NCBI GenBank assembly: GCA_009930425.1
Contig: RZYE01000001.1
Coordinates: 1 to 63,537, forward strand
Length of the DNA: 63,537 nt
Direction: 5' to 3'
Origin: Actinomycetota bacterium
GTDB taxonomy: Bacteria > Actinomycetota > Actinomycetes > Actinomycetales > Actinomycetaceae
Below, piece by piece: positions 13,783 through 39,943 of this stretch; position 1 is the stretch's first letter; each line of letters begins with the position of its first letter. The notes under the pieces are model-generated. The model saw nothing but the letters and a program-made list of their open reading frames with translations, was not told the DNA's origin and ran no database searches. A program made the translations under genes and the position numbers.

Positions 13783-13792
13783 GGGAGTCACA

Positions 13793-14251: not shown

Positions 14252-14276
14252 AGCAAGGAACAAGGAGAAACACCGA

Positions 14277-16025
14277 ATGACTGAAACCGTACGAATCGAC
14301 TTGTCGCCACTCGTCCGTGAGATCGAGGGCATGGGTCGCGTCCTCGGCAGGGCCATCGAGGAGGTCGGATCGGAGGTCGGCGTCGTCAGGCGTGACATCC
14401 GCCTGACCAGCGACGAACTGCAGCAGCTCCGCAAGGAGTTCGAGAACTACGTGCAGCAGGCCACCCGCACCGCCGCCGTGCAGCAGTCGGAGGTCCGGGT
14501 CGGCAACCTGAAGAGCCAGCTCGACCGCGAGTTCGGGCACCACTCCATCGTGCGGCGCACCTCAGTGGGCCTCCTCCAGGCCTTCGACATCGGCAACGTG
14601 TCCAACACGACTGCCACGTCGGTCGCCGAGGAGCTGATGATCCAGACACCTCGGTACTGGCTCGCGCCCGTACTCGTGGCCCTCGCCGCCTGGTCCCACG
14701 ACAACGAGGAAATGGCCGAGAAGTCTGTCCAGGAGGCGTACTCACGGGACAAGAACAAGACCAGCCTGTTCTTCGCGCTCGTGCTCAGGAGGCAGGGACG
14801 GCAGGAGGCCGCGGTGCGGTGGCTGCGGCACTACCTCACCTCCCTCGACCCGGCCGCCCTGACCCGCGAGTTCGCCATCATCCTCGAGGCCACCTCACAC
14901 GACGCGTTCGGCACCTCCGGACAGGCGGTGCTGAGTGAGGTCATGGACACCTGGCGAGAAGAGTTGCGGAGCCGGCAGGAGATCGTCGAGTCCCAGATCC
15001 AGCAGTGGGCCGGAGAGATCGGCATGCACCGCCAGATCCTCGCCCGCTCGGCCTATCCCACCCTCGAAACCCTGGCCTCGGAGTGGACGTGGATCAAGCG
15101 CCAACTCGAGTCCGCGTCCGCGCTTCCGGAGGTGATCGACAAGTACGAGGCGATCCGAGAGTTCGACTCCCCCCTTCCCCGCGTCCTTGAGGACCTGCTG
15201 GACGACATCCTCGACCGGCTGGTCACCGACTATGACGAGGAGGAACTGCCACTGCGCCGCGAGGTGGTCTTCCACGAGGCCGTCGTGGAAGAGGCCGGAG
15301 ATCTCGACCGTGCCCGGGCGCGTGCCGACCTGGTGCAGGAGGCGCTCGAGGAGACCACCGACGTGGTGTCCCTCCAGACGAGCGCCGCAATCCACCCCGA
15401 GACCATCGGCGTGAGCACCCAGACGCAGCGCATCGCCATCGGGCTCGGGCAGGACGACTTCCGGACCGCGGTGGGACGGTACTGCGCCGCGTACCGCGGA
15501 GAGGCCATCTCCACCGTCACCTACACCTTCGGGTCCGGCCACTCCAACTACGCGAAGACCTACGGCTTCAAGGGGTGTTCGGTCCGCTCCGACACCCCGG
15601 AGGAGACGGGCATCGACCGCATCACGCAGACATGGATGGACACCCTGCGCGAGCACATCCAGAACATCTCGTTCAAGAACTCCTGGTACACCAAGCCCTC
15701 GATCATCGCCGGTGCCATCGCCCTCCTCCTGCTGCTCATCCCCGCCTTCCGCGTGGCCGGAGTGGTCGCGCTGATCATCGGCGCCGGCATCGTGTACTAC
15801 CGAGGCGAGCAGGAGAAGAAGAGGTGCGCGCAGGCGGTGCGAGCGGTCGAGCAGGTCCGCCAGCAGGCGATCGACCACTCCATCTCCCTCTACCGGGACG
15901 CGAACGCACAACTCGTGGACGCGATGCTCGTCTACGAGGAACTGGATGCCCAGGAGTCCGACCTCCTGCGGCTCATCGAAACCTGGCCGACCGCGAAGAG
16001 CACGATCGAAGGAGCAGTCCTGTGA
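14277..16025 (+). CDS. Hypothetical 582-aa helical protein with a C-terminal TM hairpin
   Basis: ATG follows an AAGGAG SD. The amino-acid composition is coding-like. The C-terminal KPSIIAGAIALLLLLIPAFRVAGVVALIIGAGIVYY forms two TM helices. No family recognised. Confidence 0.7.
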   Translation: MTETVRIDLSPLVREIEGMGRVLGRAIEEVGSEVGVVRRDIRLTSDELQQLRKEFENYVQQATRTAAVQQSEVRVGNLKSQLDREFGHHSIVRRTSVGLLQAFDIGNVSNTTATSVAEELMIQTPRYWLAPVLVALAAWSHDNEEMAEKSVQEAYSRDKNKTSLFFALVLRRQGRQEAAVRWLRHYLTSLDPAALTREFAIILEATSHDAFGTSGQAVLSEVMDTWREELRSRQEIVESQIQQWAGEIGMHRQILARSAYPTLETLASEWTWIKRQLESASALPEVIDKYEAIREFDSPLPRVLEDLLDDILDRLVTDYDEEELPLRREVVFHEAVVEEAGDLDRARARADLVQEALEETTDVVSLQTSAAIHPETIGVSTQTQRIAIGLGQDDFRTAVGRYCAAYRGEAISTVTYTFGSGHSNYAKTYGFKGCSVRSDTPEETGIDRITQTWMDTLREHIQNISFKNSWYTKPSIIAGAIALLLLLIPAFRVAGVVALIIGAGIVYYRGEQEKKRCAQAVRAVEQVRQQAIDHSISLYRDANAQLVDAMLVYEELDAQESDLLRLIETWPTAKSTIEGAVL

Positions 16026-16294
16026 GCGAGAATGACACCACCCTCATGACCACGCCGGCCGAGGACGGCGCTCCGACCGTCGTCGTGCGCCGTCCACGCA
16101 GCAGCGGGAAGTTCGTCCCGCGGAGCACACCCACCCCCGATTCCGACGAGGTCATCATCGGGCGCAACCTGCTCACCTCACGAAACCGCGACGGCAAGGA
16201 GCAGACGCCGCGGGAGCGGCGGATCGCGGGCGACTTGCCGGCGTGGGAGCCGCTTCCACCCGGCGAGTTGTTCGTCAGGCGGGGCCGTCACTGA
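16022..16294 (+). CDS. Small (about 90 aa) disordered basic protein
   Basis: An in-frame GTG overlaps the upstream stop (GTGA). An alternative ATG lies at 16046. Placement inside a coupled operon is the only support. Confidence 0.4.
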   Translation: MSENDTTLMTTPAEDGAPTVVVRRPRSSGKFVPRSTPTPDSDEVIIGRNLLTSRNRDGKEQTPRERRIAGDLPAWEPLPPGELFVRRGRH

Positions 16295-16296
16295 CC

Positions 16297-16935
16297 GTGC
16301 ACCCGAATCCCCGACTGCAGGGCTCCAGCCCGTACGAGACCTGGGTGATGACGATGCGGGCGTGGGAGGCCGACCCGACCACCCCGCTCGATCACCTTCC
16401 CGTCCTGACGGACGAGACGTTCACGCCGGAGACCTTCTCCCGCCTCTTCGCACACGTGCTGAAGGCCATGCAGGCGGTCTCGGACCGGTGGCAGCATCTG
16501 CTCGTGCAGGCGTGGGCGACGTCGTCGAACTCCTTCGAGTTGGGGCGCGAACTCGTCCAGTTGCGAGCGACCCTCTCGCGCCGGCTGCAACTGGCAGGAC
16601 ACCCGTCGCTCCCGGAGAAGGCTCGCGAGATCCTGCTTCGGGACACTCGGGCGGCGATCTCGAGGTACCAGCGGGACCTCGAGGACAACGTCCGACGCCT
16701 CCACTCCTCGGGACACGTGGACCGCAAGGAACTCGACCGGATGCTCATGGTGGTTCGGGAGAACTCGTTCGAAGGCCTCCTGACCTACAACGTCAGCCAC
16801 GACGGGAGCCGGGCCATGGCCGCTCCGCTGCCGCCCCCGGGACCGCACCACCACGAGCCCACCACCATCCGCGCCACCAGGTGGGACCACCGCCGCGTGG
16901 TTCCCCTCCCCTCCGAAGAGAGCCAGACCCCCTGA
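16297..16935 (+). CDS. Hypothetical helical protein (about 212 aa)
   Basis: The GTG at 16297 lies 2 nt after the upstream stop; alternative starts are at 16345 and 16348. The stop overlaps the AAA+ start (TGATG). Composition is helical and no family is recognised. Confidence 0.55.
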   Translation: MHPNPRLQGSSPYETWVMTMRAWEADPTTPLDHLPVLTDETFTPETFSRLFAHVLKAMQAVSDRWQHLLVQAWATSSNSFELGRELVQLRATLSRRLQLAGHPSLPEKAREILLRDTRAAISRYQRDLEDNVRRLHSSGHVDRKELDRMLMVVRENSFEGLLTYNVSHDGSRAMAAPLPPPGPHHHEPTTIRATRWDHRRVVPLPSEESQTP

Positions 16936-18482
16936 TGCCAAACCAGGCCGAGACCCAAGAGATCGTCCACCGCTACCTGAGCGCGCGGGTGCCGCTCATC
17001 GTCATCCGCTCGATCGAGCCGAACCGGGCGATGAGCATCCTCACCTCCTGCGCGTCACGGCTGCGCTCGATGTCCTACTACGAGCACTCCCGCACCGAAG
17101 GCCTGCGGGAGCTGCTGAGTGGCCACAACCTGGTGGACGAGACCTCATTGACGGTGGCGCTCGAGCACGCGCGCACCACCTTCAAGTCCAGGACGAACGT
17201 CAACTTCGTGTTCACGGACGTCGAGGACCTCGACCAGGAGAGTTCCACCTCACGGCACTTCGCCGAGATGGTGCGACTGGCGGAATCGCGGCAGGGAACG
17301 ATCGTCCTGGTTGTCTCGAACCCCGTCTGGAACGGTCTCGGGCGGCTCGGGATGAGCGTGGTGCTCGACCTGCCCACCACGGACGAGCTCGCGGAGGTCC
17401 TCGGCGGCATGGTGGATGACCACCGGGGAGTGGTGCAGATCGAGTGGCAGTACGACGAGTTGCGGCGCGCGGCGGAGATCCTCTCGGGCATCACCGAGAT
17501 GGAGGCAATCAACGTGCTCGCCACCATGCTGGCAAAGGGGAGTCTCCACAACTCGGACCTCGCGGAACTCTCCACCTTCAAGGACCGCATCTTCGGGGAC
17601 CTGAACGGGGTCGAGCGCGTCCGGTTGAAGGAGGACTACAAGACGGGAGGTCTCCGCAACCTGCGGAAGTGGTTGGTGCACCGCGAGGTGCTCATGAACT
17701 CCGACCTGTCGCACACCACGCTGCGCCCCCCGAAGGGGGTGCTCCTGGTGGGCGTGCCGGGCTGCGGGAAGTCGCTCTCCGCCAAGGCGATCGCCTCCGA
17801 GTGGCGGCTCCCGCTGTACCGGCTGGACATGTCCGGGGTCCTCGGCATGTACGTCGGCCAATCGGAGAGCCGCCTGCGCGAGGCGCTCGAGACCGCCGAC
17901 CGGGTGGCACCCTGCGTCCTCTGGATCGACGAGATCGAGAAGGCACTGGCGACGGGTCCCGGGGATTCCGGGACCTCACGCCGGCTGATCGGGCAGTTCC
18001 TCTTCTGGCTGCAGGAATCGACCGCCAAGGTCTTCCTCGTGGCGACCTCCAACGACGTCAGTTCTCTGCCCCCCGAACTCCTCCGGAAGGGCCGGTTCGA
18101 CGAGATGTTCTTCGTTGACCTCCCCGATGAGGCCGACCGCGAGGAGATCCTCCGGATGTACTTCGAGAAGTACCTCCGGTACGACGTCCCACCGGACCTC
18201 ATGCGCCGCCTCGTGGAGGCCTCGGCAGGCTTCTCCGGCGCGGACATCGAGTCAACCGTGCACGACATGGAGGCGTCCCGGTTCGCCACTGGTCGGACCG
18301 GCCTCCCATCCGACGCCGAGTTGATGGCGTACTTCCAGAACGTCGTGCCCTTCAGCCAGACCAACGCCGAGGAGGTCGCCGCGATCCGGCAGTGGGGTCT
18401 CAGCCGCTGCGTGCCGGCTGGGAGCGCGCCGGCCGGAGGAACCCCTGGCACCAGCACGAGCCGCCGTGTCGTGATCGTGTAG
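16935..18482 (+). CDS. AAA+ ATPase, classical (Cdc48/FtsH-like) clade, with a P-loop-less N-terminal domain
   Basis: Walker A GVPGCGKS at 17751-17774. Walker B is CVLWIDEIEKA. VFLVATSNDVSSLPPELLRKGRFDEMFFVDLP is the second region of homology. The N-terminal ~230 aa (PLIVIRSIEPNRAMSIL...IVLVVSNP) look like a degenerate AAA-like module. Confidence 0.85.
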   Translation: MPNQAETQEIVHRYLSARVPLIVIRSIEPNRAMSILTSCASRLRSMSYYEHSRTEGLRELLSGHNLVDETSLTVALEHARTTFKSRTNVNFVFTDVEDLDQESSTSRHFAEMVRLAESRQGTIVLVVSNPVWNGLGRLGMSVVLDLPTTDELAEVLGGMVDDHRGVVQIEWQYDELRRAAEILSGITEMEAINVLATMLAKGSLHNSDLAELSTFKDRIFGDLNGVERVRLKEDYKTGGLRNLRKWLVHREVLMNSDLSHTTLRPPKGVLLVGVPGCGKSLSAKAIASEWRLPLYRLDMSGVLGMYVGQSESRLREALETADRVAPCVLWIDEIEKALATGPGDSGTSRRLIGQFLFWLQESTAKVFLVATSNDVSSLPPELLRKGRFDEMFFVDLPDEADREEILRMYFEKYLRYDVPPDLMRRLVEASAGFSGADIESTVHDMEASRFATGRTGLPSDAELMAYFQNVVPFSQTNAEEVAAIRQWGLSRCVPAGSAPAGGTPGTSTSRRVVIV

Positions 18483-18491
18483 GAGGCTCTC

Positions 18492-19577
18492 ATGGGAATC
18501 TGCGAACGGTGCGGCGCCACGGTCACGGGAGACAGGTGCTCCCTGTGCGGGTCCACCAAGATCGTCACCCGCAACCTCCCGCCGGTGCGGCCACCGGCAC
18601 CAGGCCCTGTCACCCCGCCGAGGGCGGTCACGCCGCCCGCGCCCACCACGCCTCCCCCACCACCAGTCATGACAGCCGCTCCGGTTCCGCCCCCACCGAG
18701 TGGGTCTCGCGATTCCGCCGGCACCTCGACGCCGGGCGGGGGCAGGCGTCCGTTGCTCGTCGTGGGAGGCCTCGCCGTACTCGCCGTCGCTGTGGGCGCG
18801 TTCGCCCTCAGTGGCGTCGGATCCGACGACGTCGCCACGCAACCGACGCAACCGGCCGCCAATGCGGTGGCGACAGTCCCGGCGGTCGCGGCCGAGCAGC
18901 CGGTTGTCGAGCCCACCCCCGCACCGTCTCCCGAGGTGACCGTGCCTGCGGCTCCTCAGCTCTCCGGCTGCTGGGACGTCGAGGCGGATGCAGCAGGACT
19001 GGCGAGCTACGCCGCAGCACTCGGCACTGCCGCGTCGAGCCCGGTTGCGATCAGCCAGTTCGACTCCAGCCTCGCCGCGATGGAGGGCACGTGCGGCGTG
19101 GTCTACACGACCGACGTCGCCGTCTCCGTGGCGCGTCAGCCGGGCATTCCGGGTGGGATCCAGGAGGCGGCCGACTCGTACGTGGCCGCCCGGGTCCGAT
19201 TCCCCGCACCGGACGGCTCACTGGTACGGCAGCGGATCGACTCGCCCGAGAAGAACATCTCCTGCGAACTGGAGGAGTCCTCGGTGGGCTGCTCGATCCT
19301 CGAGCGGAGCTACCCGGTTGCGGAGGACTGCCCGGACAGGCTGTTCTCGGCGGTCCTCGTCAACGGGGACGCGGAGAAGGCCTGCGGCACCCAATGGCTG
19401 GGTGAGGTGGGCGACGACTTCTACCACATCGACTACGGCGAGACCGTGCAGTTCGGCTTCATGGCGTGCACCGTCGAGGCGGACGGGCCGCGCCGCGGGA
19501 TGACCTGCTGGGACACCCGCACGGGGCACTCGCTCCGGCTTTCGCGCGCGTTGTTCCAGATCGACAACACGCTGTAG
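18492..19577 (+). CDS. Zinc-ribbon - Pro-rich linker - TM - Cys-rich ectodomain protein
   Basis: AGGAGG SD. MGICERCGATVTGDRCSLCG is followed by a Pro-rich stretch and the TM helix LLVVGGLAVLAVAVGAFAL. A ~220-aa domain carries eight Cys. The architecture matches 9467..10219. Confidence 0.75.
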   Translation: MGICERCGATVTGDRCSLCGSTKIVTRNLPPVRPPAPGPVTPPRAVTPPAPTTPPPPPVMTAAPVPPPPSGSRDSAGTSTPGGGRRPLLVVGGLAVLAVAVGAFALSGVGSDDVATQPTQPAANAVATVPAVAAEQPVVEPTPAPSPEVTVPAAPQLSGCWDVEADAAGLASYAAALGTAASSPVAISQFDSSLAAMEGTCGVVYTTDVAVSVARQPGIPGGIQEAADSYVAARVRFPAPDGSLVRQRIDSPEKNISCELEESSVGCSILERSYPVAEDCPDRLFSAVLVNGDAEKACGTQWLGEVGDDFYHIDYGETVQFGFMACTVEADGPRRGMTCWDTRTGHSLRLSRALFQIDNTL

Positions 19578-19596
19578 GGGACGGGATCTCCGGCGG

Positions 19597-20175
19597 TCAG
19601 GCCTTCGGCTTCCAGAGCCGGGGACCTGCAGCCGGGGGCGGCGGTCGGGTGTCGGAGTAGAGCGGCTTGGCGATGGGTTCGCCAACCATCTCGTCACGTG
19701 TCTTCAGCGCCTCGGCGTAGGTGTCGAAACCTGTGTGGACACCCTCCACCAACCTGACTCCTGCATCCTTGACGCCGGCATCCAGGGGCAGCGCGCTCAT
19801 GATGGCGGGCGGGACGTCACCCCCGGACAGTGCCACGATGACCACCGTCCCACCGGCCACGGCGACCGTCTTGACGCCGCCGACCACTGATCGGACTGCG
19901 CCCCCGAAACCGCCGGAACCACCCGCGAGCCGCTTGGCGAAGGCGTCGGCCTTCGAATCGAACCTTGCCAGCGCTTCGTCCGCCGCCCGGCACCGGCGCT
20001 CGGCCTCGGCGAGTGCGGCGACGACGGCGGAGCCCGACTGGCCGCCGTGGCGCGGCACCGACTGGCCGAGCGATCGGGCGAGCCTCGCTGCCTCGGCGAG
20101 TTCGCGGCGCGTGGGCCCGGCGGCATCCCCGACCGCGCGAACGCCCTCTGCCAGCCGCTGGAGGTCAGACGCCAT
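19597..20175 (-). CDS. Hypothetical protein: N-terminal helical hairpin, Gly-rich hydrophobic segment, small C-terminal domain
   Basis: The ATG lies 5 nt after the upstream stop. MASDLQRLAEGVRAVGDAAGPTRRELAEAARLARSLG is helical. GGSGGFGGAVRSVVGGVKTVAVAGGTVVIVALSGG is a Gly-zipper-like segment. Confidence 0.6.
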   Translation of the reverse strand: MASDLQRLAEGVRAVGDAAGPTRRELAEAARLARSLGQSVPRHGGQSGSAVVAALAEAERRCRAADEALARFDSKADAFAKRLAGGSGGFGGAVRSVVGGVKTVAVAGGTVVIVALSGGDVPPAIMSALPLDAGVKDAGVRLVEGVHTGFDTYAEALKTRDEMVGEPIAKPLYSDTRPPPPAAGPRLWKPKA

Positions 20176-20180
20176 GGCTG

Positions 20181-20468
20181 CTACTTCGCCTTTCCCTTGG
20201 ACTTGCGGGCCGCCTCGCGCTGCGCGGCCTCAGCCGCCGCTCGACGTGCCGCCTGTGCGGCCCGGGCGTACGACTGTGCAGCCTGCCGAGCACGTGCAGC
20301 AGCTTGTTGGGTGAGGTCGAGCATGGCCCGGTCCTCCCCGGACGCGGTGCCACCGATCTGCTGCGAGACCGCGGCGCCGAGGGAGCCGAGGCGGCGCGCC
20401 ACCTCGGTCATCGAGGACGCAGACTGCTGAGCCCGGCGCGCGATGCTCTCGAATTCCTGGGCGGACAC
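20181..20468 (-). CDS. Small helical-hairpin protein, paralogue of 20476..20736
   Basis: The GTG at 20468 lies 7 nt after the upstream stop. The central IGGTASGED turn is flanked by Ala/Gln-rich helices. The C-terminus is a Lys-rich tail. Confidence 0.55.
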   Translation of the reverse strand: MSAQEFESIARRAQQSASSMTEVARRLGSLGAAVSQQIGGTASGEDRAMLDLTQQAAARARQAAQSYARAAQAARRAAAEAAQREAARKSKGKAK

Positions 20469-20475
20469 GGTCCCG

Positions 20476-20736
20476 CTACAACGACTGCCCGTAGCTCGAG
20501 GCGATCCTCGAAGCATTGGCGAGCGCGGCAGTCGCCTGCTTCACGGCCTTGGAGGCCTGTTGCAGCGCTGCCACGACCTCCTGGTCCTTGCGCTGCGCGC
20601 TGCCACCGATGGCCGCCTGCACCTGCTGCGTCTGCTGCCCGAACTGCTTCTCGAACTGAGCCAGGTTCGACCCGGTCCTCTTCGCAGATTCGGCAAGACC
20701 GTTGACCGTCTGCTTGAGCTGGTTCAATTGCGACAC
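20476..20736 (-). CDS. Small (86 aa) helical-hairpin protein, WXG100-sized but without WXG
   Basis: GGAAGGAG SD upstream. Two predicted helices are joined by IGGSAQRKD. Its size and Gln/Ala richness resemble ESAT-6-like hairpins. Confidence 0.65.
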   Translation of the reverse strand: MSQLNQLKQTVNGLAESAKRTGSNLAQFEKQFGQQTQQVQAAIGGSAQRKDQEVVAALQQASKAVKQATAALANASRIASSYGQSL

Positions 20737-20975: not shown

Positions 20976-21743
20976 ATGGTGCCAGAGTCGTGGGCCGCGG
21001 AGGCCGAACTCGCTCTCCGAGCGGCCCAAGCAGCCTCGAGGCACGCTCAGGAACGACGGGACTCCCTACAGGTCGTCTCAATCGCCGCGCACGATGTCAA
21101 GCTCGAACAAGATATTGAATGCCAGCGGGTTGCTGCTGACCTGATTCGAGCCTCTCGTCCAACCCACACGATCCTCGGCGAAGAACCGGGCAGCGATGTC
21201 GAGCAGTCAACACACTCTTGGCTGATCGATCCCATTGATGGAACCTTCAATTACTCCCGAGGACTTCCCTACTGGTGCACGTCCGTAGCTCTGCGGAGCG
21301 CCGGTCACACCGTCGCCGGCGCAGTAGTGGCGCCAGAGTTGGGACTCACCTTCACTGCCACCTCCACCGGGCCAAGCTCGGTCAACGGTCGCGTCCTCCC
21401 CCCGATCGCGACAAGAGAGCCGCAGTTCGCGTCTTTGCACATTTCTCTGTCGGACGCTCCCGAAGCGGGAGATTTCCTTTCACTTGCTGCATCGAGATTC
21501 CAGAAGATCCGACTCATGGGATCCATCGCACTAGATCTCTGTTTCGTGGCGCTGGGTGCAGCCGATGCGATGGTCGCTCTCCGCGCCTTCCCCTGGGACT
21601 CTGAGGCAGGCCTGCTCATAGCCGGTAGGGTGGGAGCCCGTACCGTCGTCATCGATCGCCCAAAGGGTCAAGTCCTTCTCTGCGGTAGCGCCAAGCTCTT
21701 GACCCTCCTACGAGAGTTCCCGTTCGGCGTGATGCCAGAATGA
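20976..21743 (+). CDS. Inositol-monophosphatase-family (IMPase/CysQ-like) phosphatase
   Basis: ATG follows GGAAGGAAGGGG. Motifs are ILGEEPG, WLIDPIDGTFNY and PWDSEAGLLIA. The stop overlaps the next start (ATGA). Confidence 0.85.
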   Translation: MVPESWAAEAELALRAAQAASRHAQERRDSLQVVSIAAHDVKLEQDIECQRVAADLIRASRPTHTILGEEPGSDVEQSTHSWLIDPIDGTFNYSRGLPYWCTSVALRSAGHTVAGAVVAPELGLTFTATSTGPSSVNGRVLPPIATREPQFASLHISLSDAPEAGDFLSLAASRFQKIRLMGSIALDLCFVALGAADAMVALRAFPWDSEAGLLIAGRVGARTVVIDRPKGQVLLCGSAKLLTLLREFPFGVMPE

Positions 21744-23035
21744 CGCAGGTCGTCTTCATCAGCCACTCGAGCATGGACGCGGAGACGGCCCGAGAACTGG
21801 CGGATGCGCTCCGGTCGCGCGGGATGGATCCGTGGCTCGCGTCGGAGAGGGTGACGCCGGGAGGATACTACGCGTCCGAGATCACCCGAGCCATCGCGCA
21901 AGCGGACGCTGTCGTTGTCCTGCTCTCACGGGCGTCCATCACCTCTCCACAGGTGAAGCGGGAGGTGGACAGCGCTGTCTCCGCCGACCGACCCTTGATT
22001 CCTCTGGACCTGCACGGCATCCGGACTCTCTCAGAGCTACCCGACGAGTGGCAGTACCTGCTGCGACTCACGCAATGGCACCGTCACACTCACGCCTCGG
22101 ACACCGCGCATCATCTGGAACGGATACTTCTCGGTGAAGCCTCCTCGGGGCCCACCGTCCGAGCCAGTGCACCTCGCGCAGAACCCGCAACGGTGACGAT
22201 CGCCGACAGCAACCTGCTCGTGGTGAAGGCGTTCCTACTCGCATCGCGTCTGGCCAACGAACTAGGCGCTCTGGGTGCCGCGCCTCACATGGTCAACGCC
22301 CCCTGGTCCAGCAACCTATTGGACCGGGCGGTCGACGGCGAGCTCGACTTCCTGATCTACAACGAAGTCGCTGCACGCAGCTTCGCTGAAAGGCACCCTG
22401 ACGAACTTGTCGTCGTTGCACACGCCGGTCATTCGATGGGGGGCAACAACTTCGGAGTTCTCGTCAGCAACGATTCACGGTGGCGAGATGTGGATCTGGG
22501 AACGCTGGGAACGCTTCTGGATCACGGTGTCCGCATCTACCTCGGGCTAAACAGCGACCGGGCTCGCAACTTCTCGCTTGCGACCGGGCTGACGTTGCTC
22601 GAATTGCGGGAGCGCGGAGTCGTGGTAGTGAACGCAGGCGAACCGGGCCTTGAGATCCTGGCGAGCGATCCCGACGCCATCATCGTCACCGGTCAGAACG
22701 CGCGGTTCGAAGCTCGCTTGAGCGGCGCGGCGTACGAGGTGGGAGGCTTTGAGAGGCTGCCACCTCAGACTCGAAAATCCCTTCGCCAAGGGTCCTCAAA
22801 TGTCCTGCTCGCTCGACTTGAGACCGCCAACCAACTAGGACTTGATCTCCCTAGTCTTGGGGCCCGTGTCAAGCGGAATGCCGCTGAGTGCTGGGCAGAC
22901 GACTCCGAGTTTGAGTCGCTAGTGAGTACGTTGGCTGGATGCTGCGACTTCCAGTTCGCGCGTCGACAAGATCGAATCTTGATCACAAAGCACGTCCTGT
23001 ACGAGACATACCGGGCAGGTGAACCAGTCCTGTGA
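21740..23035 (+). CDS. TIR domain fused to a type-2 binding-protein (NMT1/SsuA-like) fold
   Basis: VFISHSSMDAETARELADALRSRGMDPWLASERV...AVVVLLSRASITSPQVKREV is a TIR domain with the conserved Glu. The C-terminal ~290 aa (TIADSNLLVVKAFLLASRLANELGALGAAPHMVNAPWSSNLLDRAVDGELDFLIYN...) follow the SBP pattern. No signal peptide. Confidence 0.75.
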   Translation: MTQVVFISHSSMDAETARELADALRSRGMDPWLASERVTPGGYYASEITRAIAQADAVVVLLSRASITSPQVKREVDSAVSADRPLIPLDLHGIRTLSELPDEWQYLLRLTQWHRHTHASDTAHHLERILLGEASSGPTVRASAPRAEPATVTIADSNLLVVKAFLLASRLANELGALGAAPHMVNAPWSSNLLDRAVDGELDFLIYNEVAARSFAERHPDELVVVAHAGHSMGGNNFGVLVSNDSRWRDVDLGTLGTLLDHGVRIYLGLNSDRARNFSLATGLTLLELRERGVVVVNAGEPGLEILASDPDAIIVTGQNARFEARLSGAAYEVGGFERLPPQTRKSLRQGSSNVLLARLETANQLGLDLPSLGARVKRNAAECWADDSEFESLVSTLAGCCDFQFARRQDRILITKHVLYETYRAGEPVL

Positions 23036-23877
23036 GTGCACTGCGATACCTCGTGGTCGGGAGTTTCAACCTCGACACGGTGATCCGGCTCAGATCCTTT
23101 CCGCCACCGCACTCGAAGGTCCAGGCTGAGGAGATCTGGCGAGGCCCAGGCGGGTCTGCGGCCATCACCGCCGCCTGGCTCGCTCGACAGGGCTCCGCGG
23201 TATCTCTCGTCGCGGCGTCAGGGGGAGATCACGAGGCGCACGAGGCGATTGGGCGACTCACGGCTACCGGAGTCAACTGCCGGTTCGTGACAACCACCAG
23301 CCCTGAGTCATCGAGAGCCTACTCACTTGTCACCGAGACAGAGAAGAGGATCATCACACGCCCGTCCGGTCAGCGGCTCCCAGCCCTAAAGTCAGCCGAA
23401 GAGGTCCTACACGAGTTCGACGCCGTTCACATCGCGTCGGCAGCCAGCCCGGAACTAATGGCGTTCGCTACCACCTGCAGAGAGAGACGTATCCCCTTCA
23501 GCGTCGAACTCGCAGGGCGCCGAATGCCGGAAATCACATGCATGGCGGAACGCACCTTCTTGAATTCAGATGAACTCAGCCTCCTCTTTCCGTCGGGATG
23601 GAGTGACTTCCGGACGGACGTAGGGGGCACGCTCGTCGCTCGCAATGGGCGCCTAGTCGTCACCCGCGGTCGTATCGGGGCATCCGAACACGGCGAAGAC
23701 CTGACGGTGACGGCGCCGACCGTGGCTGTGACCTCCGTCGACCGTACCGGGGGAGGAGACGCGTTCAACGCCGGATACCTCTACGAGTGGCAGACCGGCG
23801 GGACGCCGGAGGAGTGCCTTCAGGCCGGGCTACGATTGGCGACATCGGCAATCACCAGAATGGGGGGCCTACCGTGA
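23032..23877 (+). CDS. PfkB-family (ribokinase-like) carbohydrate/nucleoside kinase
   Basis: GTGA overlap with the upstream stop. N-terminal motif VVGSFNLDTV. C-terminal signature VDRTGGGDAFNAGYL. Confidence 0.85.
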   Translation: MSALRYLVVGSFNLDTVIRLRSFPPPHSKVQAEEIWRGPGGSAAITAAWLARQGSAVSLVAASGGDHEAHEAIGRLTATGVNCRFVTTTSPESSRAYSLVTETEKRIITRPSGQRLPALKSAEEVLHEFDAVHIASAASPELMAFATTCRERRIPFSVELAGRRMPEITCMAERTFLNSDELSLLFPSGWSDFRTDVGGTLVARNGRLVVTRGRIGASEHGEDLTVTAPTVAVTSVDRTGGGDAFNAGYLYEWQTGGTPEECLQAGLRLATSAITRMGGLP

Positions 23878-24485
23878 CACTGACAGGCATCGCGCTTCTT
23901 CCGCGAGACGACCTTCGCGAAGCACTGGTGGAGTTCCGAGCTCGCCATTCGAGTTCGATCGCCGGACCCGAACTCGGCCTTGAAGTCAACCTGCCGCACA
24001 TGTCGATCCTGCAGTGCCCGTTCACCGACGGTCTGGATCACCAGTTGGTAGTCGACGTGTTGGCAGACAGAGTCCTCAGCAGCCGGACACCGCTTCGTTT
24101 CGCAGGACTCAGCTATCAACCGCGAGCGTGGATCTTCGCGGACCTGGAGAAGCCCAGATGGCTGGTGGATCTACAACGGACCGCCCTCGCACTCAGCCAA
24201 GCCCATATCGACCTCTCATCAATCGGCAACCGAGCCGGCGACGAATTGACCCCCGCGGAGGTCGAGAGCTACCGCACCTATGGGTACAGGTATGTAGGAG
24301 ACGCCTTCCGACCGCACATCACCTTGGGTCGGACCCCGGACCGCGCCGAGAATCTCGCTGCTGGCCTTGCAGCCGAATTCTGGAGCGAATTCGCAGATTC
24401 CGAGGTGACCTTCAGTTCAGTGGTGTTCTACGAAGCTGGGGAGTCAGGCGTGCTCGCACGCCGGCTGGCCGAACGTCAGATCTGA
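23874..24485 (+). CDS. 2H (LigT/cyclic phosphodiesterase-like) phosphoesterase
   Basis: GTG start overlaps the PfkB stop (GTGA). It has two H-x-S/T motifs (PHMSILQ and PHITLGR) about 110 aa apart, as in 2H-superfamily enzymes. Confidence 0.7.
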   Translation: MTLTGIALLPRDDLREALVEFRARHSSSIAGPELGLEVNLPHMSILQCPFTDGLDHQLVVDVLADRVLSSRTPLRFAGLSYQPRAWIFADLEKPRWLVDLQRTALALSQAHIDLSSIGNRAGDELTPAEVESYRTYGYRYVGDAFRPHITLGRTPDRAENLAAGLAAEFWSEFADSEVTFSSVVFYEAGESGVLARRLAERQI

Positions 24486-24530
24486 GGTTCTCAGCCTGAA
24501 TGAGAACCGGCCGATTCAGAGTTCATCGGC
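24486..24530 (+). terminator. Two consecutive stem-loops immediately after the 2H gene stop
   Basis: GGTTCTCA (24486-24493) pairs with TGAGAACC (24501-24508). GCCGAT (24510-24515) pairs with ATCGGC (24525-24530). An alternative pairing CTGAAT/ATTCAG spans both. There is no U-tract. Confidence 0.35.
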
Positions 24531-24627
24531 GTGACTCGGGTCCGGAATGTGGTCTGGGCAGGCAGCCAACTGAATCTCCGGGAATGCTGGATCCATATTC
24601 CGCCCCGGGGAGGAGCGCGAGGAAGCG

Positions 24628-25860
24628 ATGAGCGGACCAAAGGGCTACGGCTACACGGTGGTCTCGGCGGAGGAACTCGCCCGGAGGGAGGCCGAGAGCG
24701 CTCGCAACGCCCTCATGGCCGCGCAGAGCCGCCTTCGAGAACTCCGGACACGTGCCACCGGGTTGAGAATCCAGGCCTCCGTCCCCGAAGCGCAGGCGCG
24801 CGTTCCCGCCGGCGCCACCGCCGCCGAGATCCGCGCCGTCATCGCGACCGTCGAGCAGGCCCACAGCCGCCTCGAGGCGGCGATGCGGGAACGCCGCCAG
24901 GAGCTGGCCCGCGCCGAGCTGGCCCGCGCCGTCGGGCAGCTGGACCTGTCGCAACTCGGCACGGTCACCTCCATGCCGCGGTCCACCAAGGCCCGAGTCC
25001 AGCGCAGCACCCAGGACCACCGAACCGCCCAGGACCACCGCGATGCCCAGGACCACCGCGATGCCGAGCGGCAGCGGACCGAGCAACTCCGGGCACGCCT
25101 CATCAAGGCGACGGACGCGGCCAGGGTGCTCGGCGACTCCGAGCTCACGCGGATCGGCACGCTCGCGGCTGCGGTGTCCGCCACGCTGGAGGGCGCCACG
25201 GATGCCGGGCTCCCCCCGGCCCTGGCGGTCAGCCGACTGGAGGCCGCCGTCGTCGACGCCGTGACCGCCCAGCGGCAGCGGGACGCGAACGACCGCCGGC
25301 GCGCCACGATCGCGGTGGCGAACGCGGACCTGGCCGGCAGCGCCGCCGAGGAGATCCGCGAACGGCTCGCCGCCGCCACGACCCCGGAGGACTTCAGCCG
25401 CGTCGAGGCGGAGTTCGCGGCACTGCGGGAGGAGGTCCGCGCCGAGGCCGACCGTGCGTTCGTGCTCGCCACCTCGCTCGCGGTGCTCCGGGAGATGGGC
25501 TACCAGGTGAGCGAGACGCTGTCGGGCGGGCGGGCCCCCACCCTGACCGTCAGCGACGTCCACTGGCCGAGCCACCGGCTCCGGATCGTCCTCGATCCCG
25601 ATTCGGCCGCGCTGCACACCAGCCCGGTCGCGATCGCCCCCACCGATCCCCGCGATGACGTCCGCTTCGAGGAGTCCTCCTGCAGGGCGCTTGCCCGGTT
25701 CACCGAGAGCCTGCGGGCCCGAGGGGTCGCCACCACCCTGGACCGGCACCGCGCTCCCGGTGAGGTGGCCCTACTGCACGAGCACGCCGCCACGGCCAGC
25801 GGCCACACAGTCAGCGGCCACACAGCACGCCCACGCGAGCGCACGCTGGGAGACCGGTGA
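24628..25860 (+). CDS. Coiled-coil protein (410 aa) with a globular C-terminal part
   Basis: GAGGAAG SD. Long Ala/Glu/Arg heptad-like helices. It contains an internal QDHR(T/D)A x3 repeat. The stop overlaps the next start. No family recognised. Confidence 0.7.
   Translation: MSGPKGYGYTVVSAEELARREAESARNALMAAQSRLRELRTRATGLRIQASVPEAQARVPAGATAAEIRAVIATVEQAHSRLEAAMRERRQELARAELARAVGQLDLSQLGTVTSMPRSTKARVQRSTQDHRTAQDHRDAQDHRDAERQRTEQLRARLIKATDAARVLGDSELTRIGTLAAAVSATLEGATDAGLPPALAVSRLEAAVVDAVTAQRQRDANDRRRATIAVANADLAGSAAEEIRERLAAATTPEDFSRVEAEFAALREEVRAEADRAFVLATSLAVLREMGYQVSETLSGGRAPTLTVSDVHWPSHRLRIVLDPDSAALHTSPVAIAPTDPRDDVRFEESSCRALARFTESLRARGVATTLDRHRAPGEVALLHEHAATASGHTVSGHTARPRERTLGDR
25012..25065 (+). 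repeat. In-frame 18-nt tandem repeat x3 (CAGGACCACCG[A/C][A/G][A/T][C/G]CC)
   Basis: cag gac cac cga acc gcc / cag gac cac cgc gat gcc / cag gac cac cgc gat gcc encodes QDHRTA QDHRDA QDHRDA. Confidence 0.8.
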
Positions 25861-27656
25861 TGCGTGACCTCTCCGAACACCCGATCTGGCTGAGGGACAT
25901 CGACGCCGCACTACCCGTGACTGCGTCGTTCGTGGTCAGCGGGAACATCCGCGACCTGTACCTCCTCCCGCACTCGAGCCGGCCCAAGGACGCCTACGCG
26001 GCACTGTGGGACACCCTGCGGCGCAGCGGCTTCGAGGCGATCGTGCTGCACACGCCGAGCGCCCTGCGGGTCCTCCCTCTCGGCGATTCGGCGGCGATGG
26101 AGGCGGCCTGCCAGGTCCTGGGCACCAAGGAGGAGGACTTCGACGCCCCCGTCGGCCCGGATGAGCTCGCACGCCACGTCCGCAGCGTCCTCGGGACGTC
26201 CGCACGGCGCGTGGCGCTCGTGGTCGACTACGTGTCCCAGTGGAACACCAGCGGCGAGTCGGTGGCCCCCGCGGACCTCGCGCTCTTCCGCACCGCCCTC
26301 GAATCCATCCACGCGGCGCACTCGTTCCGGTACGGCAGCGCACGCCGGTCCGCGCTGTACAACCCCCTCATCTGGCTGGTGGACCGGCCCGCCGACCTCC
26401 CGGAGTGGCTGGTGGGCGGCTCCGACCTGATCCGCCAGGTCCCGATCCCCTCCCCCGACCTCGACGACCGGCTGGACCTCACGCGCCGGCTCACGGCCGG
26501 CATGTCCCCCGACGGCGCCGCCGCCGAGGCGGGTGCGCGCCGGTTCGCCGAGCTCACCGAGGGCATGACGCTGCGGTCCCTCCTCGAGATCCGGCAGCTC
26601 TCGATGGACCAGGAGATCGGCCTCGACCACATCGACGACGCCGTGCGCGCCTTCCGGATCGGCGTGGTGACCAACCCGTGGGCGCGCCGGGAGCTCCAGC
26701 AGCGGATCCGCGACGGCGCCGCCCACCTCACCCGGCGCGTCAAGGGCCAGGACCGCGCCGTCCGTCACGCGTTGGACATCCTGCTCCGGTCCACCACGGG
26801 CATGACGGGGGCGGAGACCGGCCGGCCGGTCAGCGGCCCGCGCGGCATCCTCTTCTTCGCCGGGCCCACCGGCGTGGGCAAGACGGAACTCGCCAAGGCC
26901 ATCACGGCCCTCGTGTTCGGGGACGAGCGCGCCTACATCCGTTTCGACATGAGCGAGTTCGCCTCGGAGCACACCGAGGCCCGGCTCATCGGGTCCCCAC
27001 CCGGCTACGTCGGCCACGGGCAGGGCGGCGAGCTGACCAACGCGGTGCGGCAGAAGCCCTTCGCGCTCATCCTCTTCGACGAGATCGAGAAGGCCCACCC
27101 CCGCATCCTGGACAAGTTCCTCCAGATCCTCAGCGACGGCCGCCTCACCGACGGCAGCGGCGCCACCGTGCACTTCAGCGAGTCCCTCATCGTGTTCACC
27201 TCGAACCTGGGCGTGCCCCCGGTCCCCGACGGGGAGGAGCCGCCGCGCGGCCGCGAGCTCGAGGAGACGGTGCAGGCCGCCATCACGGACGCCTTCGAGC
27301 ACGACCTCCACCGCCCGGAACTCCTGGGGCGGATCGGGGACAACATCGTGGTCTTCGACTACATCAGCCCCGACATCGCGCGCGTCCTCGCCTCGGACTT
27401 CATCGACAACATCCTCGCCCGTGCCCACCAGACCCGGGAGGTCAGGCTCCGGATCACCGACGACGTCCGGGCGCACCTGGTCGAGGAGGCGATCGCCGAC
27501 CTCTCCAAGGGCGGCCGGGGCATCGGCCGGAACCTCGAGCGGATCCTCGTGAACCCGTTGGCTCGCGCCCTGTTCGACCTCGAACCCGGCCGGTCGGCCA
27601 CCATCACGGACGTCAGGCGGGAGGAGGCCGGGTGGTACACGGTGAGCCTCGCCTGA
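25857..27656 (+). CDS. Clp/Hsp100 D2-type AAA+ ATPase with a P-loop-less N-terminal AAA-like module
   Basis: ILFFAGPTGVGKTELAKAI (Walker A at 26862-26885). The Clp AAA_2 hallmark is present: RFDMSEFASEHTEARLIGSPPGYVGHGQGGELTNAVRQKPFALILFDEIEKAHP. The N-terminal half (FVVSGNIRDLYL...VALVVDYVSQ) lacks a Walker A. Confidence 0.85.
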   Translation: MMRDLSEHPIWLRDIDAALPVTASFVVSGNIRDLYLLPHSSRPKDAYAALWDTLRRSGFEAIVLHTPSALRVLPLGDSAAMEAACQVLGTKEEDFDAPVGPDELARHVRSVLGTSARRVALVVDYVSQWNTSGESVAPADLALFRTALESIHAAHSFRYGSARRSALYNPLIWLVDRPADLPEWLVGGSDLIRQVPIPSPDLDDRLDLTRRLTAGMSPDGAAAEAGARRFAELTEGMTLRSLLEIRQLSMDQEIGLDHIDDAVRAFRIGVVTNPWARRELQQRIRDGAAHLTRRVKGQDRAVRHALDILLRSTTGMTGAETGRPVSGPRGILFFAGPTGVGKTELAKAITALVFGDERAYIRFDMSEFASEHTEARLIGSPPGYVGHGQGGELTNAVRQKPFALILFDEIEKAHPRILDKFLQILSDGRLTDGSGATVHFSESLIVFTSNLGVPPVPDGEEPPRGRELEETVQAAITDAFEHDLHRPELLGRIGDNIVVFDYISPDIARVLASDFIDNILARAHQTREVRLRITDDVRAHLVEEAIADLSKGGRGIGRNLERILVNPLARALFDLEPGRSATITDVRREEAGWYTVSLA

Positions 27657-27676
27657 CCCTCCGCGTCGCCCGCGTG

Positions 27677-28291
27677 ATGTCCCCCGTGACCGTGCTGGGA
27701 CCGGGACGGCGGGTGGTCCTGTGGGTGCAGGGCTGCGGCATCGGGTGCCCGGGGTGTGCCTCCGTGGACACCTGGGATCCCGACGGCGGCACGCGCCTCG
27801 ACGTCGTCGCCCTCGTCGGCCAGATCGGTGACCTCATCGGCCGGGACGGACTCGACGGCCTCACCATCACCGGGGGCGAGCCGACCGACCAGGGCGAGCC
27901 GCTGCACGAGCTCGTCACGCTGCTGCGGGCGCGCCGCCCCGACCTCGACGTCCTCGTCTTCACCGGACGCACGCACCGGGTGGCCGCGCGGCGGGCGCCC
28001 CGCCTCCTCGAGGCCACCGACTGCGTGGTCGCCGGTCCGTACCGGCGGGACCTGCCGCCGAACGGGCCCCTGGTCGCGTCCGCCAACCAGACCGTCCACC
28101 TCAGGTCCGGCGCGGCGCGGGAACGCTACGCGGCCCTGCTGGAGGACTCGCTGGCGCCCGGGCTCCAGGTGTGCGTCGAGGACGGTGAGATCCTGCTCGT
28201 GGGGTTGCCCCGGGCCGGGGACCTGGATCGGTTCGAGGCCGGCCTCGCCGCGGCGGGGGTTCGACTGGAGGGAGTGACGTGGCGACCATGA
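27677..28291 (+). CDS. NrdG/PflA-like radical-SAM activase-family protein
   Basis: VVLWVQGCGIGCPGCASVDTW carries the CxxxCxxC cluster at 27734-27757. LTITGGEPT is a SAM-binding GGE motif. At 204 aa it is the size of small activases. Confidence 0.8.
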   Translation: MSPVTVLGPGRRVVLWVQGCGIGCPGCASVDTWDPDGGTRLDVVALVGQIGDLIGRDGLDGLTITGGEPTDQGEPLHELVTLLRARRPDLDVLVFTGRTHRVAARRAPRLLEATDCVVAGPYRRDLPPNGPLVASANQTVHLRSGAARERYAALLEDSLAPGLQVCVEDGEILLVGLPRAGDLDRFEAGLAAAGVRLEGVTWRP

Positions 28292-28913
28292 TGCGACACG
28301 GGTGCGGCACGGTGGTGGATGCCGACGAGATCCTCTGCCCGGGCTGTGGCGGAGCGGTCACCGAGGAGACGCTGAGCCCGCTCGAGGAGGCGGCGACCAC
28401 GGTCCTGCCTGCCGGCGCCGCTGCCCCTCCCCCCGCGGTTGGCCCGAGCGAGGGAGAGCGGCTCTGCCCCACCGAGTGGTGCCGCCGTCCCCTGCTCCCC
28501 GGGGCGACCGTTTGCGACGGCTGCCACCGTCCCGTCCCGCCCGCCACCCCGCAGCCAGGCCCAGGACCGTCCGTGCCGGCGCCCACCGGACGGCCCGCCC
28601 TCGCCACCGCGACGTACGCGCTCGTCCTGCCCGGGGCGGTGCGGCTCGTCCTCCGTGCCGGCGAGACGCTCGAGTTGGGGCGTGAGGCGGGCCCCGCCGT
28701 CGTCAGGGCCACGCTCGCCCCCCTCGACACGGTCTCGCGGCGCCACGCCAGCGTGACCGCCGCGCCGGACGGGGCGGTGGTACGCGACCTGAACTCCGCC
28801 AACGGCACGTTCGTGGACGATGTGGCCGTCTCGGCGGCGATCACCGTCCGGCCGCCCGTGGTGCTGCGGCTCGGGCAGACGGTCAGGATCGGTCTCGTGG
28901 AAGGGGAGGGGTC

Positions 28914-28917
<4 letters not shown>
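28279..28917 (+). CDS. Double zinc-ribbon - FHA domain protein
   Basis: CGTVVDADEILCPGCG and CPTEWCRRPLLPGATVCDGC are the two ribbons. The FHA core is LELGRE...VSRRHASV...NSANGTFVDD (GR, SxxH, NG). It overlaps both neighbouring genes. Confidence 0.8.
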
Positions 28918-31565
<2,648 letters not shown>

Positions 31566-31574
31566 GAGAATCCG

Positions 31575-34412: not shown

Positions 34413-34550
34413 CAGTCGGCCCCCCAACCGACGAGTCGGAGCGATCGATCTCCCACACGCCTCCGCGTTCAGGATCAGGGAGTCGCATGACGGCAGGGCG
34501 CCGTCAAGTAGTCTCGCAGTTGGCGGCGGACGTGCTGCAACCCCCTGGGT

Positions 34551-39864: not shown

Positions 39865-39943
39865 CGGGACCCCGGAAGCACTCAGCCAAGATCGCCGCCC
39901 TGAGACAATCCGGTTGAGGTGCAGCACCAACCTGGAGACTCAC

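Follow-up and report, generated by a model that had tools for sequence, protein, structure and literature searches.

Small-molecule-gated effectors have been described in several bacterial defence systems. TIR-SAVED of CBASS (a Cap effector) and PycTIR of Pycsar join a TIR domain to a SAVED or a cyclic nucleotide (cNMP)-binding sensor, Thoeris (types I-XI) is built from TIR-containing multigene operons, and the CARF effectors of type III CRISPR couple one sensor to many outputs. Phage defence is less mapped in the antibiotic-producing Streptomyces than in E. coli or Bacillus. Here we analysed a stretch of 63,537 nucleotides from an Actinomycetota bacterium of the family Actinomycetaceae (assembly GCA_009930425.1, contig RZYE01000001.1, positions 1 to 63,537; the whole stretch is referred to as the window), which contains a four-gene operon coding, in this order, for an inositol monophosphatase (IMPase)-family phosphatase, a fusion of a TIR domain with a C-terminal domain that we call X (TIR::X), a PfkB-family kinase and a 2H phosphoesterase. 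What is new in this locus is the sensor domain X together with the set of enzymes, whereas its logic, that of a small-molecule-gated effector, is of a known kind. On balance we favour, with some reserve, the reading that the operon is the TIR-bearing variant of a conserved, undescribed conflict module that is gated by a small molecule and encodes enzymes metabolising its own ligand.

Results

Operon structure and base composition

The four genes lie on the forward strand (Table 1) and all three junctions are 4-nt start/stop overlaps (ATGA at 21740-21743, GTGA at 23032-23035 and GTGA at 23874-23877). The ATG at 20976 is favoured as start of the IMPase gene over an upstream ATG at 20883, because a Shine-Dalgarno-like stretch, GGAAGGAAGGGG, is found just 5' of it. 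Reading of the sequence confirmed the genes, coordinates, overlaps and motifs that a first-pass annotation of the window had listed, and profile searches with the four proteins confirmed its assignment to the IMPase, TIR, PfkB and 2H families. As 4-nt overlaps are frequent among high-GC actinomycete operons, they are by themselves weak evidence for a meaningful gene set. The four genes form one operon, as had been proposed, and this is borne out by the recurrence of the gene set, with its order unchanged, in dozens of genomes.

The operon differs from its surroundings in base composition. In a window with an overall GC content of 68.8% the GC content at third codon positions (GC3) is 0.65-0.72 in the four operon genes versus 0.85-0.96 in the flanking genes, the next gene after the operon, beginning at 24628, having a GC3 of 0.90. 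Since the low GC3 is common to all four genes, the cassette was probably acquired as a unit, and by its foreign-looking composition the operon is probably a horizontally acquired cassette. Scanning for sigma-70 promoters and intrinsic terminators gave no convincing match at the operon ends. Two hairpins follow the 2H gene; the fold of 24478-24545, which comprises both, has an energy of -26 kcal/mol, the z-score being only -1.8, lacks a T-tract and is weak evidence for an operon end.

X is a cytoplasmic binding-protein fold with exchangeable heads

X did not match any Pfam model even at E <= 5, the NMT1, SBP_bac_3 and Phosphonate-bd models included. An AlphaFold (AF2) model calculated from an alignment of 27 family members (pLDDT 94.3, pTM 0.89) has the two-lobe fold of type-II periplasmic binding proteins (PBPs). 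Foldseek searches of the PDB with this model returned SsuA (3ksj/2x26, TM-score 0.66), Thi5/NMT1, TauA, ThiY, PqqT and NrtA, with TM-scores of 0.6-0.67 and E values of about 1e-10 for SsuA, Thi5, TauA and ThiY. The fusion partner had been called NMT1-like in the first-pass annotation, which is right at the level of the fold, though there is no Pfam match. X carries no signal peptide and is located C-terminally to cytoplasmic domains in all fused members, and the operon has no transporter genes (ABC permease or ATPase). Judged by the predicted structure, X is a cytoplasmic SsuA/NMT1-type PBP fold that forms a sequence family of its own.

When 1.84 billion representative proteins were searched exhaustively with a profile, 78 members of this family emerged. 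A word-index protein search retrieved five X relatives with the whole TIR::X protein and nine with a profile of the X domain, among them only a single relative of full length (P0002, with 49% identity) and one X protein that stands free. Conserved residues are W189, N208, S232-M-G-G235, D273, G318-Q-N320, R322, E333, N354 and Y424. X is C-terminal in every member and the N-terminal part varies: we found TIR, TIR-like/DUF4062-type, DUF4145, HD-CE, protein kinase, OmpR/SARP-type winged helix-turn-helix (wHTH) and HTH_3 heads, and further members have a head without known domain or are head-less with a short tail only. DUF4145 is a divergent HEPN RNase (PMC3710099) and the catalytic domain of the defence protein RAZR (PMC13017515). 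A constant C-terminal X combined with exchangeable toxic or DNA-binding heads follows the pattern of ligand-sensing domains such as CARF, SAVED and the effector domains of LysR-type regulators, suggesting, by analogy, that X is probably a ligand sensor.

The TIR domain as a probable exchangeable output

The catalytic glutamate of the TIR domain, Glu75 in the motif VKREV, is invariant across 10 aligned TIR::X proteins. Apart from TIR_2 (Table 1) the domain matched the Pfam models CAP12-PCTIR_TIR (8e-6) and ThsB_TIR (4e-5; 24.4 bits versus a cut-off of 21.2), and its top PADLOC match was SAVED_TIR (1e-11). The profile matches thus favour effector-type TIRs (SAVED_TIR, CAP12/PycTIR) over ThsB, by a small margin. 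As the TIR occupies the exchangeable head position and the same enzymes accompany X where no TIR is present, we regard it as an output: by sequence it is most likely a swappable, NAD-consuming effector and not a signal synthase, and the simplest reading of TIR::X, in analogy to TIR-SAVED, is that of a ligand-gated NADase. The earlier statement that no killing effector lies inside the operon is consequently doubtful, the sensor-fused TIR with its invariant Glu75 being a likely effector itself.

The three enzymes fall within their superfamilies

None of the three enzymes reaches the cut-off of a named NCBIfam equivalog, and each lies within its superfamily. The phosphatase contains the metal-binding motifs of the IMPase family (GEE, residues 68-70; DPIDGT, 85-90; WDSEAG, 207-212), scores below the cut-offs of the HisN, SuhB and CysQ equivalogs (all far below) and of FBPase/IMPase, and has SuhB/IMPase as top PDB sequence matches (E = 3e-24). 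The kinase has the PfkB motifs GSFNLD (10-15), NSDE (178-181) and GGGDAF (240-245), and the N-x-D ribose-binding motif is kept. Its nearest NCBIfam models are ribokinase (9e-24) and archaeal ribose-1-phosphate kinases (3e-23 and 2e-22), all below cut-off; with 84 bits versus a TIGR02152 cut-off of 300 it is not an RbsK equivalog. Sulfofructose kinase and ribokinases are its PDB sequence matches, and it is 35-38% identical to the PfkB genes found 3' of X at other loci, belonging to an X-linked clade of its own.

The 2H protein contains both motifs of the superfamily, HMS (42-44) and HIT (148-150), with H42 and H148 invariant in the family. Its AF2 model (pLDDT 95.3) resulted in Foldseek matches to YjcG, AKAP18, LigT and the Arabidopsis cyclic phosphodiesterase (CPDase) for the 1'',2''-cyclic phosphate of ADP-ribose (Appr>p), and Acb1 and the poxvirus cyclic GMP-AMP (cGAMP) phosphodiesterases were among the distant structural matches. 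It does not belong to the 2H group associated with carbon-phosphorus (C-P) lyase as defined by TIGR03223 (28 bits versus a cut-off of 249), and the window has no phn genes. In databases the family is named '2'-5' RNA ligase family', 'DUF1045' or 'hypothetical' only, and PDB sequence searches with PfkB, IMPase and 2H gave generic family matches that indicate no substrate. The proximity of PfkB to ribokinase and the structural resemblance of 2H to the Appr>p CPDase agree with the view of the first-pass annotation that the enzymes act on a ribose-phosphate small molecule, which is probably correct.

X and 2H form the fixed core of a recurrent gene set

We scanned one genome per species, 185,579 representatives in total, with a degenerate DNA pattern of the second 2H motif, which may miss divergent copies, and analysed the resulting 76 loci with local hidden Markov models. 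DNA patterns derived from the first X alignment had no match in the genome contigs, and hand-made degenerate patterns were used instead. Module genes stand beside 2H in 46 of the 76 loci, nearly all of them from Streptomyces, the exceptions being a Solirubrobacteraceae metagenome-assembled genome (MAG), Citromicrobium and a termite-gut MAG. All four genes are present within the 8-kb chunk in 28 loci, in the order X, PfkB, 2H, IMPase and on one strand, and DUF4145::X-PfkB-2H-IMPase occurs in about 45 of the species representatives, almost all of them Streptomyces.

A scan of metagenomes with an independent, X-derived pattern added 12 true X loci, and in 12/12 of them 2H is located directly 3' of X or 3' of X and PfkB. 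A 2H family gene lies downstream of X in 51/51 X loci with enough downstream DNA and is present in 15/15 loci that were found through X and not through 2H; PfkB accompanies X in 36/42 loci, IMPase in 25/36. The module thus has X and 2H as its fixed core, PfkB as usual component and often a phosphatase (IMPase or histidine phosphatase) or a NUDIX hydrolase. The window follows this layout, with a C-terminal X and then a 2H gene on the same strand, PfkB being the optional gene between them. Identities between its four proteins and the corresponding ones of Streptomyces are 32%, 32%, 35% and 35%, similar values that fit co-divergence of the set as a unit, and IMPase is encoded upstream of TIR::X in the window versus 3' of the 2H gene in Streptomyces.

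Variants of the module differ in the genes around this core. L001 is the closest relative; here the gene next after TIR::X codes for a 203-aa protein sharing 54% identity with the window 2H, and neither a kinase nor an IMPase gene stands beside the pair. A 2H gene of the same family comes after HTH::X in L006 and L008, and in L009 TIR::X has a NUDIX gene on its 5' side and 2H on its 3' side. NUDIX genes also occur in L105 and L114, the latter with a histidine phosphatase gene (His_Phos_1) directly 3' of 2H. We further found one DUF4145::X contig with X, PfkB, a 213-aa gene and IMPase, one wHTH::X locus with X, PfkB and 2H, and one head-less X followed by PfkB at the contig end.

The first-pass annotation had proposed that the enzymes edit a TIR product. 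This is not supported, as the same enzymes accompany DUF4145, HD, wHTH, HTH and head-less versions of X, and HEPN, HD and HTH heads make no NAD-derived molecules that could be edited. It had also named a finding that would speak against its proposal, namely that the orthologous genes usually form a sugar or inositol catabolic operon without TIR or 2H partners. The orthologues are indeed usually without TIR, but they never occur without 2H and do not look like sugar or inositol catabolism. We rejected an inositol or sugar catabolic operon, there being no transporter, dehydrogenase or isomerase gene, and kinase and phosphatase travel with X and 2H.

Some loci show further genes. At least 26 Streptomyces loci (e.g. 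L038:599-1906) encode, directly 5' of DUF4145::X or, in a few, 3' of IMPase instead, a protein some 420 aa long that has two transmembrane (TM) helices at its C-terminus and no Pfam match; it is absent from the window and L001 and may be a membrane effector or sensor of the canonical Streptomyces system. In five actinomycete, mostly Streptomyces, 2H-family loci (L022, L053, L061, L078 and L069), where there is room upstream, no X, PfkB or IMPase was detected, and Ser/Thr kinase-like open reading frames (ORFs) are located near 2H in two of them. A lone 2H (L088:4597-5220), 42% identical to the window 2H, lies amid many small ORFs on the same strand that have no PHROG matches, and could belong to a mobile element.

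Gene context of the 2H family and the putative ligand

DUF1045 has been described as an optional gene of C-P lyase operons (PMC3266647). In our scan recognisable phn (C-P lyase) genes, identified by N-terminal sequence similarity, stand beside 2H in 12 X-less loci from cyanobacteria and Alicyclobacillus (L076, L051, L045, L015, L084, L026, L044, L068, L067, L087, L033 and L063), whereas in other cyanobacterial 2H loci the chunk contained none. The genes run phnJ-K-L-M-2H-phnF or nearly so, 2H being mostly located directly after phnM or beside phnF. In the E. coli operon phnN and phnP follow phnJ-K-L-M, and PhnP reportedly opens 5-phosphoribosyl 1,2-cyclic phosphate (PRcP), as Hove-Jensen et al. 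are said to have found in 2011. The arrangement suggests that the phn-linked 2H replaces PhnP as PRcP diesterase. The phn-linked 2H proteins share 29-33% identity with the window 2H, which is nearly as much as the 2H of the Streptomyces modules with about 35%.

The phn linkage of the 2H family and the NUDIX and histidine phosphatase variants point to a phosphoribosyl or cyclic-phosphate ligand, and IMPase, histidine phosphatase, NUDIX, the ribokinase-like PfkB and the Appr>p-CPDase-like 2H, taken together, would probably suit a ligand of the phosphoribosyl, ribose cyclic-phosphate or bisphosphate type. We put this ligand class forward tentatively, as one that may well prove to be another.

Genomic context

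The support for a role of the module in biological conflict is consistent, if indirect. Among the 185,579 species representatives scanned the module turned up in only about 46; it is chromosomal in Streptomyces and has different flanking genes among the Streptomyces loci. A reverse transcriptase gene adjoins the relative at L059, and genes for conjugation or plasmid replication are present in the L006, L008 and L010 loci. Besides the operon the window codes for five further TIR proteins, a SLATT protein, NB-ARC/STAND NTPases, a tubulin-vWA pair and a RyR protein (Table 1).

Downstream of the operon a close-spaced run of six forward-strand genes (24628-32309), with overlaps of a few nt at the first three or four junctions, encodes a 410-aa protein of no recognised family, a ClpB-like AAA+ ATPase, a small radical-SAM/Fer4_12 protein, a zinc-ribbon-FHA protein, a Ser/Thr kinase with a C-terminal membrane region and a PP2C phosphatase. 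All of these genes except that of the 410-aa protein recur about 5 kb from TIR::X-2H in L001, the only close relative, in inverted orientation and with 34-45% identity, so that their proximity to TIR::X-2H is kept across considerable divergence. At 3345-7736, in a region that is likewise low in GC, a TIR gene again stands beside a gene for a binding-protein fold, which is apparently cytoplasmic. Further TIR genes cluster at 33372-47510 and more conflict-type genes follow at 50174-63428; in the metagenome locus L093 a gene for a RyR-domain membrane protein adjoins TIR::X-2H. The region 10229-20736 also codes for several proteins without recognised family.

Table 1. Features of the operon and of the remaining window
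Feature	Position	Strand	Remarks
IMPase-family phosphatase, 255 aa	20976-21743	+	Pfam Inositol_P E = 1e-33, 117 bits vs cut-off 27
TIR::X, whole gene	21740-23035	+	
TIR domain of TIR::X, about aa 1-127	21740-22120	+	TIR_2 E = 2e-20, aa 5-95
X domain of TIR::X, aa 145-431	22172-23035	+	predicted type-II PBP fold, SsuA/NMT1 cluster; probable ligand sensor
PfkB-family ribokinase-like kinase, 281 aa	23032-23877	+	Pfam PfkB E = 5e-26, 92.2 bits vs cut-off 25.8
2H phosphoesterase, 203 aa	23874-24485	+	DUF1045 E = 1e-6 (29.1 bits vs cut-off 24.3), LigT_PEase 8e-4
Two hairpins	24487-24530	+	directly 3' of 2H stop; possible operon end
TIR-TM-beta-propeller-like protein	3345-5879		lower-GC block
SBP_bac_3 protein	6127-6831		apparently without signal peptide
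2-hydroxyacid dehydrogenase	6831-7736		
FtsK/SpoIIIE-like ATPase	10229-13243		
Cdc48-type AAA ATPase	16362-18482 (ORF)		true start probably later
Three small genes	19597-20736	-	divergent to operon
TIR protein, 346 aa	33372-34412		lower-GC block
TIR-NB-ARC-TPR protein	35963-38914		not lower-GC
SLATT protein, two TM helices	38911-39864		between the two TIR-NB-ARC-TPR genes
Second TIR-NB-ARC-TPR protein	39761-43066		not lower-GC
TIR-WD40 protein	43141-45246	-	lower-GC block; its TIR 35% identical to TIR of TIR::X
Tubulin-like protein	50174-53491	-	adjoins vWA gene
vWA protein	53504-56434	-	
RyR-PGDYG protein	56556-58985		
NACHT/nSTAND NTPase	61092-63428	-	

Discussion

Our data describe a gene set in which a binding-protein-fold domain with exchangeable heads is accompanied by a 2H phosphoesterase and, in most cases, by a kinase and a phosphatase, and which is probably a new small-molecule-triggered defence switch. 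In the mechanism that we propose X would bind a small phosphorylated ribose-type metabolite, candidates being 5-phosphoribosyl or ADP-ribosyl 1,2-cyclic phosphate, ribose 1,5-bisphosphate or a related compound derived from a nucleotide. Closure of the clamshell could then cause dimerisation or oligomerisation of the fused N-terminal head. All head types found on X act as dimers or oligomers, and such a step would suit TIR domains, HEPN dimers and HTH dimers alike. In the window the TIR head would subsequently degrade NAD+, an activity predicted for it, and stop growth of the infected cell, while 2H, PfkB and IMPase would set the ligand level, either by converting an infection-linked precursor into the ligand or by clearing the ligand. 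It is possible, though we consider it doubtful, that the module stands for a new class of cyclase-free immune or conflict signalling, in which a metabolite of the phosphoribosyl cyclic-phosphate type, or its ring-opened or phosphorylated product, serves as alarm and is read by a PBP-fold sensor gating the heads.

Two other explanations place the enzymes in the chemistry of ribose phosphates as well. The module might carry out ordinary salvage or repair of a ribose cyclic phosphate (PRcP from decay of phosphoribosyl pyrophosphate, or Appr>p), with X as regulator or sensor, regulatory or degenerate TIR and HEPN heads and no part in defence. wHTH::X and HTH::X do share the layout of LysR-type regulators, a DNA-binding head on a PBP type-II domain, the 2H family also works in the plain catabolic setting of phn operons, and the sources name the proteins only generically; yet a HEPN RNase, a TIR with intact Glu, HD-CE and protein kinase heads are typical toxic outputs, no transporter or further catabolic genes accompany the module, and its rarity, variable flanks, low GC3 and location in defence-type islands or beside conjugation or plasmid replication genes are not what salvage would lead one to expect. 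We judge this explanation unlikely. Slightly less likely still is that the TIR synthesises a signal of the ADP-ribose (ADPR) or cyclic ADPR type which PfkB, 2H and IMPase phosphorylate, de-cyclise and dephosphorylate, X binding the product or delivering the substrate and the killer being encoded elsewhere. What speaks against a synthase is that the same enzymes stand with X where DUF4145/HEPN, HD, wHTH or HTH takes the place of the TIR or the head is missing; TIR::X of L001 has 2H only, without kinase and IMPase, the TIR::X loci share no conserved separate effector, and the TIR profile matches favour, weakly, effector-type TIRs. These points have to be set against the intact catalytic Glu of the TIR, the suitability of the enzymes for ribose-phosphate chemistry and the NUDIX genes, whose products could cleave ADPR-type molecules, next to TIR::X in L009 and L114. 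The great diversity of signalling TIRs (10.64898/2025.12.03.692087) counts for a synthase, too.

An RNA damage-and-repair cassette, in which the head (a HEPN RNase, or a TIR that acts on nucleic acid) would cut RNA to 2',3'-cyclic phosphate and 5'-OH ends, 2H open the cyclic phosphate, PfkB phosphorylate and IMPase remove the 2'- or 3'-phosphate, would resemble the healing steps of fungal and plant tRNA ligases. In Trl1-type healing a 2H domain and a kinase are the standard pairing, which favours this idea, as do the resemblance of 2H to LigT and CPDases and the fact that the commonest head is a HEPN RNase. However, a ligase is lacking, PBP-fold domains bind small molecules, and HTH, wHTH and head-less versions cut nothing and yet retain 2H and PfkB. 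To our knowledge no PfkB kinase acts on polynucleotide 5'-OH ends and no IMPase on RNA ends, and we consider RNA repair quite improbable, even though products of HEPN RNases end in cyclic phosphates (PMC3710099, PMC13017515). Finally, the module might serve mobile elements as counter-defence, X sponging a host immune nucleotide signal that the enzymes degrade, similar to Acb1-type 2H proteins and Tad sponges. The fusion of X to toxic TIR, HEPN and HD heads is unlike a sponge, the module is chromosomal in Streptomyces, and no member was found in the phage collections or in PLSDB. Immune-signal-degrading 2H proteins (Acb1, the poxvirus cGAMP phosphodiesterases) do appear among the distant structural matches, HTH::X-2H pairs occur in loci with conjugation or plasmid replication genes, and a lone 2H relative lies amid small ORFs (L088), which themselves gave no PHROG matches. 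Of all explanations considered counter-defence has the smallest probability, being highly improbable in our view.

Several points weigh against the small-molecule-gated conflict module that we prefer. X could be catalytic instead of a sensor, given its many invariant polar residues and since proteins of the SsuA/NMT1 fold include enzymes such as Thi5; SCO4506, which is among the structural matches of X, is presumably an MqnA-like enzyme. For the HTH::X-2H pairs it is equally possible that they are ordinary regulators responding to a metabolite. The window IMPase, about 32% identical to the IMPases of the Streptomyces modules, is no closer to them than to SuhB or HisN, making its orthology uncertain, and we infer the PhnP-like role of the phn-linked 2H from its gene context. 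No cyclase or nucleotidyltransferase was found at any X locus with scanned or inspected neighbours, most of the about 55 loci having been checked with the five module profiles only, and no copies of the module were found in viral contigs, INPHARED or PLSDB. In addition, most genome loci were obtained via the 2H motif, which biases the counts, a bias that the subset ascertained through X avoids.

If the proposed gating of effectors by X is correct, X would represent a new family of conflict sensors, in which a solute-binding-protein fold takes the role of CARF, SAVED or SLOG, and TIR and HEPN effectors would be controlled via sugar-phosphate or cyclic-phosphate metabolism and not by a nucleotide cyclase. 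It would also provide a functional lead for the neglected 2H/DUF1045 family, which is found in C-P lyase operons too, and a candidate defence system for Streptomyces. The module occurs in about 45 species representatives of this genus and is scattered in other phyla. The module is small (2-5 genes) and all its parts are soluble enzymes, and it is thus directly testable.

Comparison with known systems

Neither X nor the gene set is represented by a model in PADLOC 2.0 or NCBIfam 20; only the TIR region was matched, and no specific NCBIfam family was assigned. A known defence system was rejected on these grounds. The gene set is not described in the literature covered by full-text searches, a 2025 survey of TIR signalling and a 2026 domain-centric screen. 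As in Thoeris, the window has a TIR-containing multigene operon amid defence-type genes, but Pfam, PADLOC and NCBIfam scans revealed no separate effector with SLOG, Macro or another signal-binding domain. TIR::X carries a sensor-like domain of its own, its partner genes occur just as often without TIR, and the text of a broad Thoeris survey mentions no kinase, phosphoesterase or binding-protein partners. The conclusion of the first-pass annotation that this is not Thoeris therefore holds, no ThsA-type partner having been found.

Lacking a synthase and having a different sensor fold, the operon is not a CBASS, Pycsar or type III CRISPR system either, though it probably operates in the manner of their fused sensor-effector proteins. 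With the CARF effectors of type III CRISPR the module shares one sensor serving many outputs (HEPN, HD, HTH) and co-encoded ligand-metabolising enzymes, while the folds are unrelated, the X loci have no Cas10-type synthase, and 2H is obligatory with X whereas ring nucleases are optional. The PhnP/DUF1045 step of the C-P lyase pathway is connected to the module by the same 2H family, which occurs in phn operons and has DUF1045 as its top Pfam match; the window is set apart by the lack of phn genes and by the low identity (only 29-33%) to the phn-linked 2H proteins. LysR-type regulators resemble wHTH::X and HTH::X in the combination of head and clamshell and in the adjoining enzyme gene, but X is a distinct family without Pfam model and its heads are mostly toxic enzymes instead of DNA-binding domains. 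RAZR has in common with the module the DUF4145 HEPN RNase (PMC13017515), the commonest X head in Streptomyces. It is, however, a single zinc finger-DUF4145 protein activated by rings of a phage protein, with neither X nor partner enzymes, and the window copy bears a TIR in place of DUF4145.

TIR-SAVED and PycTIR differ from TIR::X in their sensors, which are SAVED or cNMP-binding domains and not of the PBP type-II fold, and in the genes next to them, since the window operon has 2H, PfkB and IMPase instead of a CD-NTase or pyrimidine cyclase. What TIR::X shares with both is an N-terminal TIR domain with a catalytic Glu fused to a C-terminal domain for sensing a small molecule and, by analogy, the expected logic, in which ligand binding would lead to TIR assembly and loss of NAD+.

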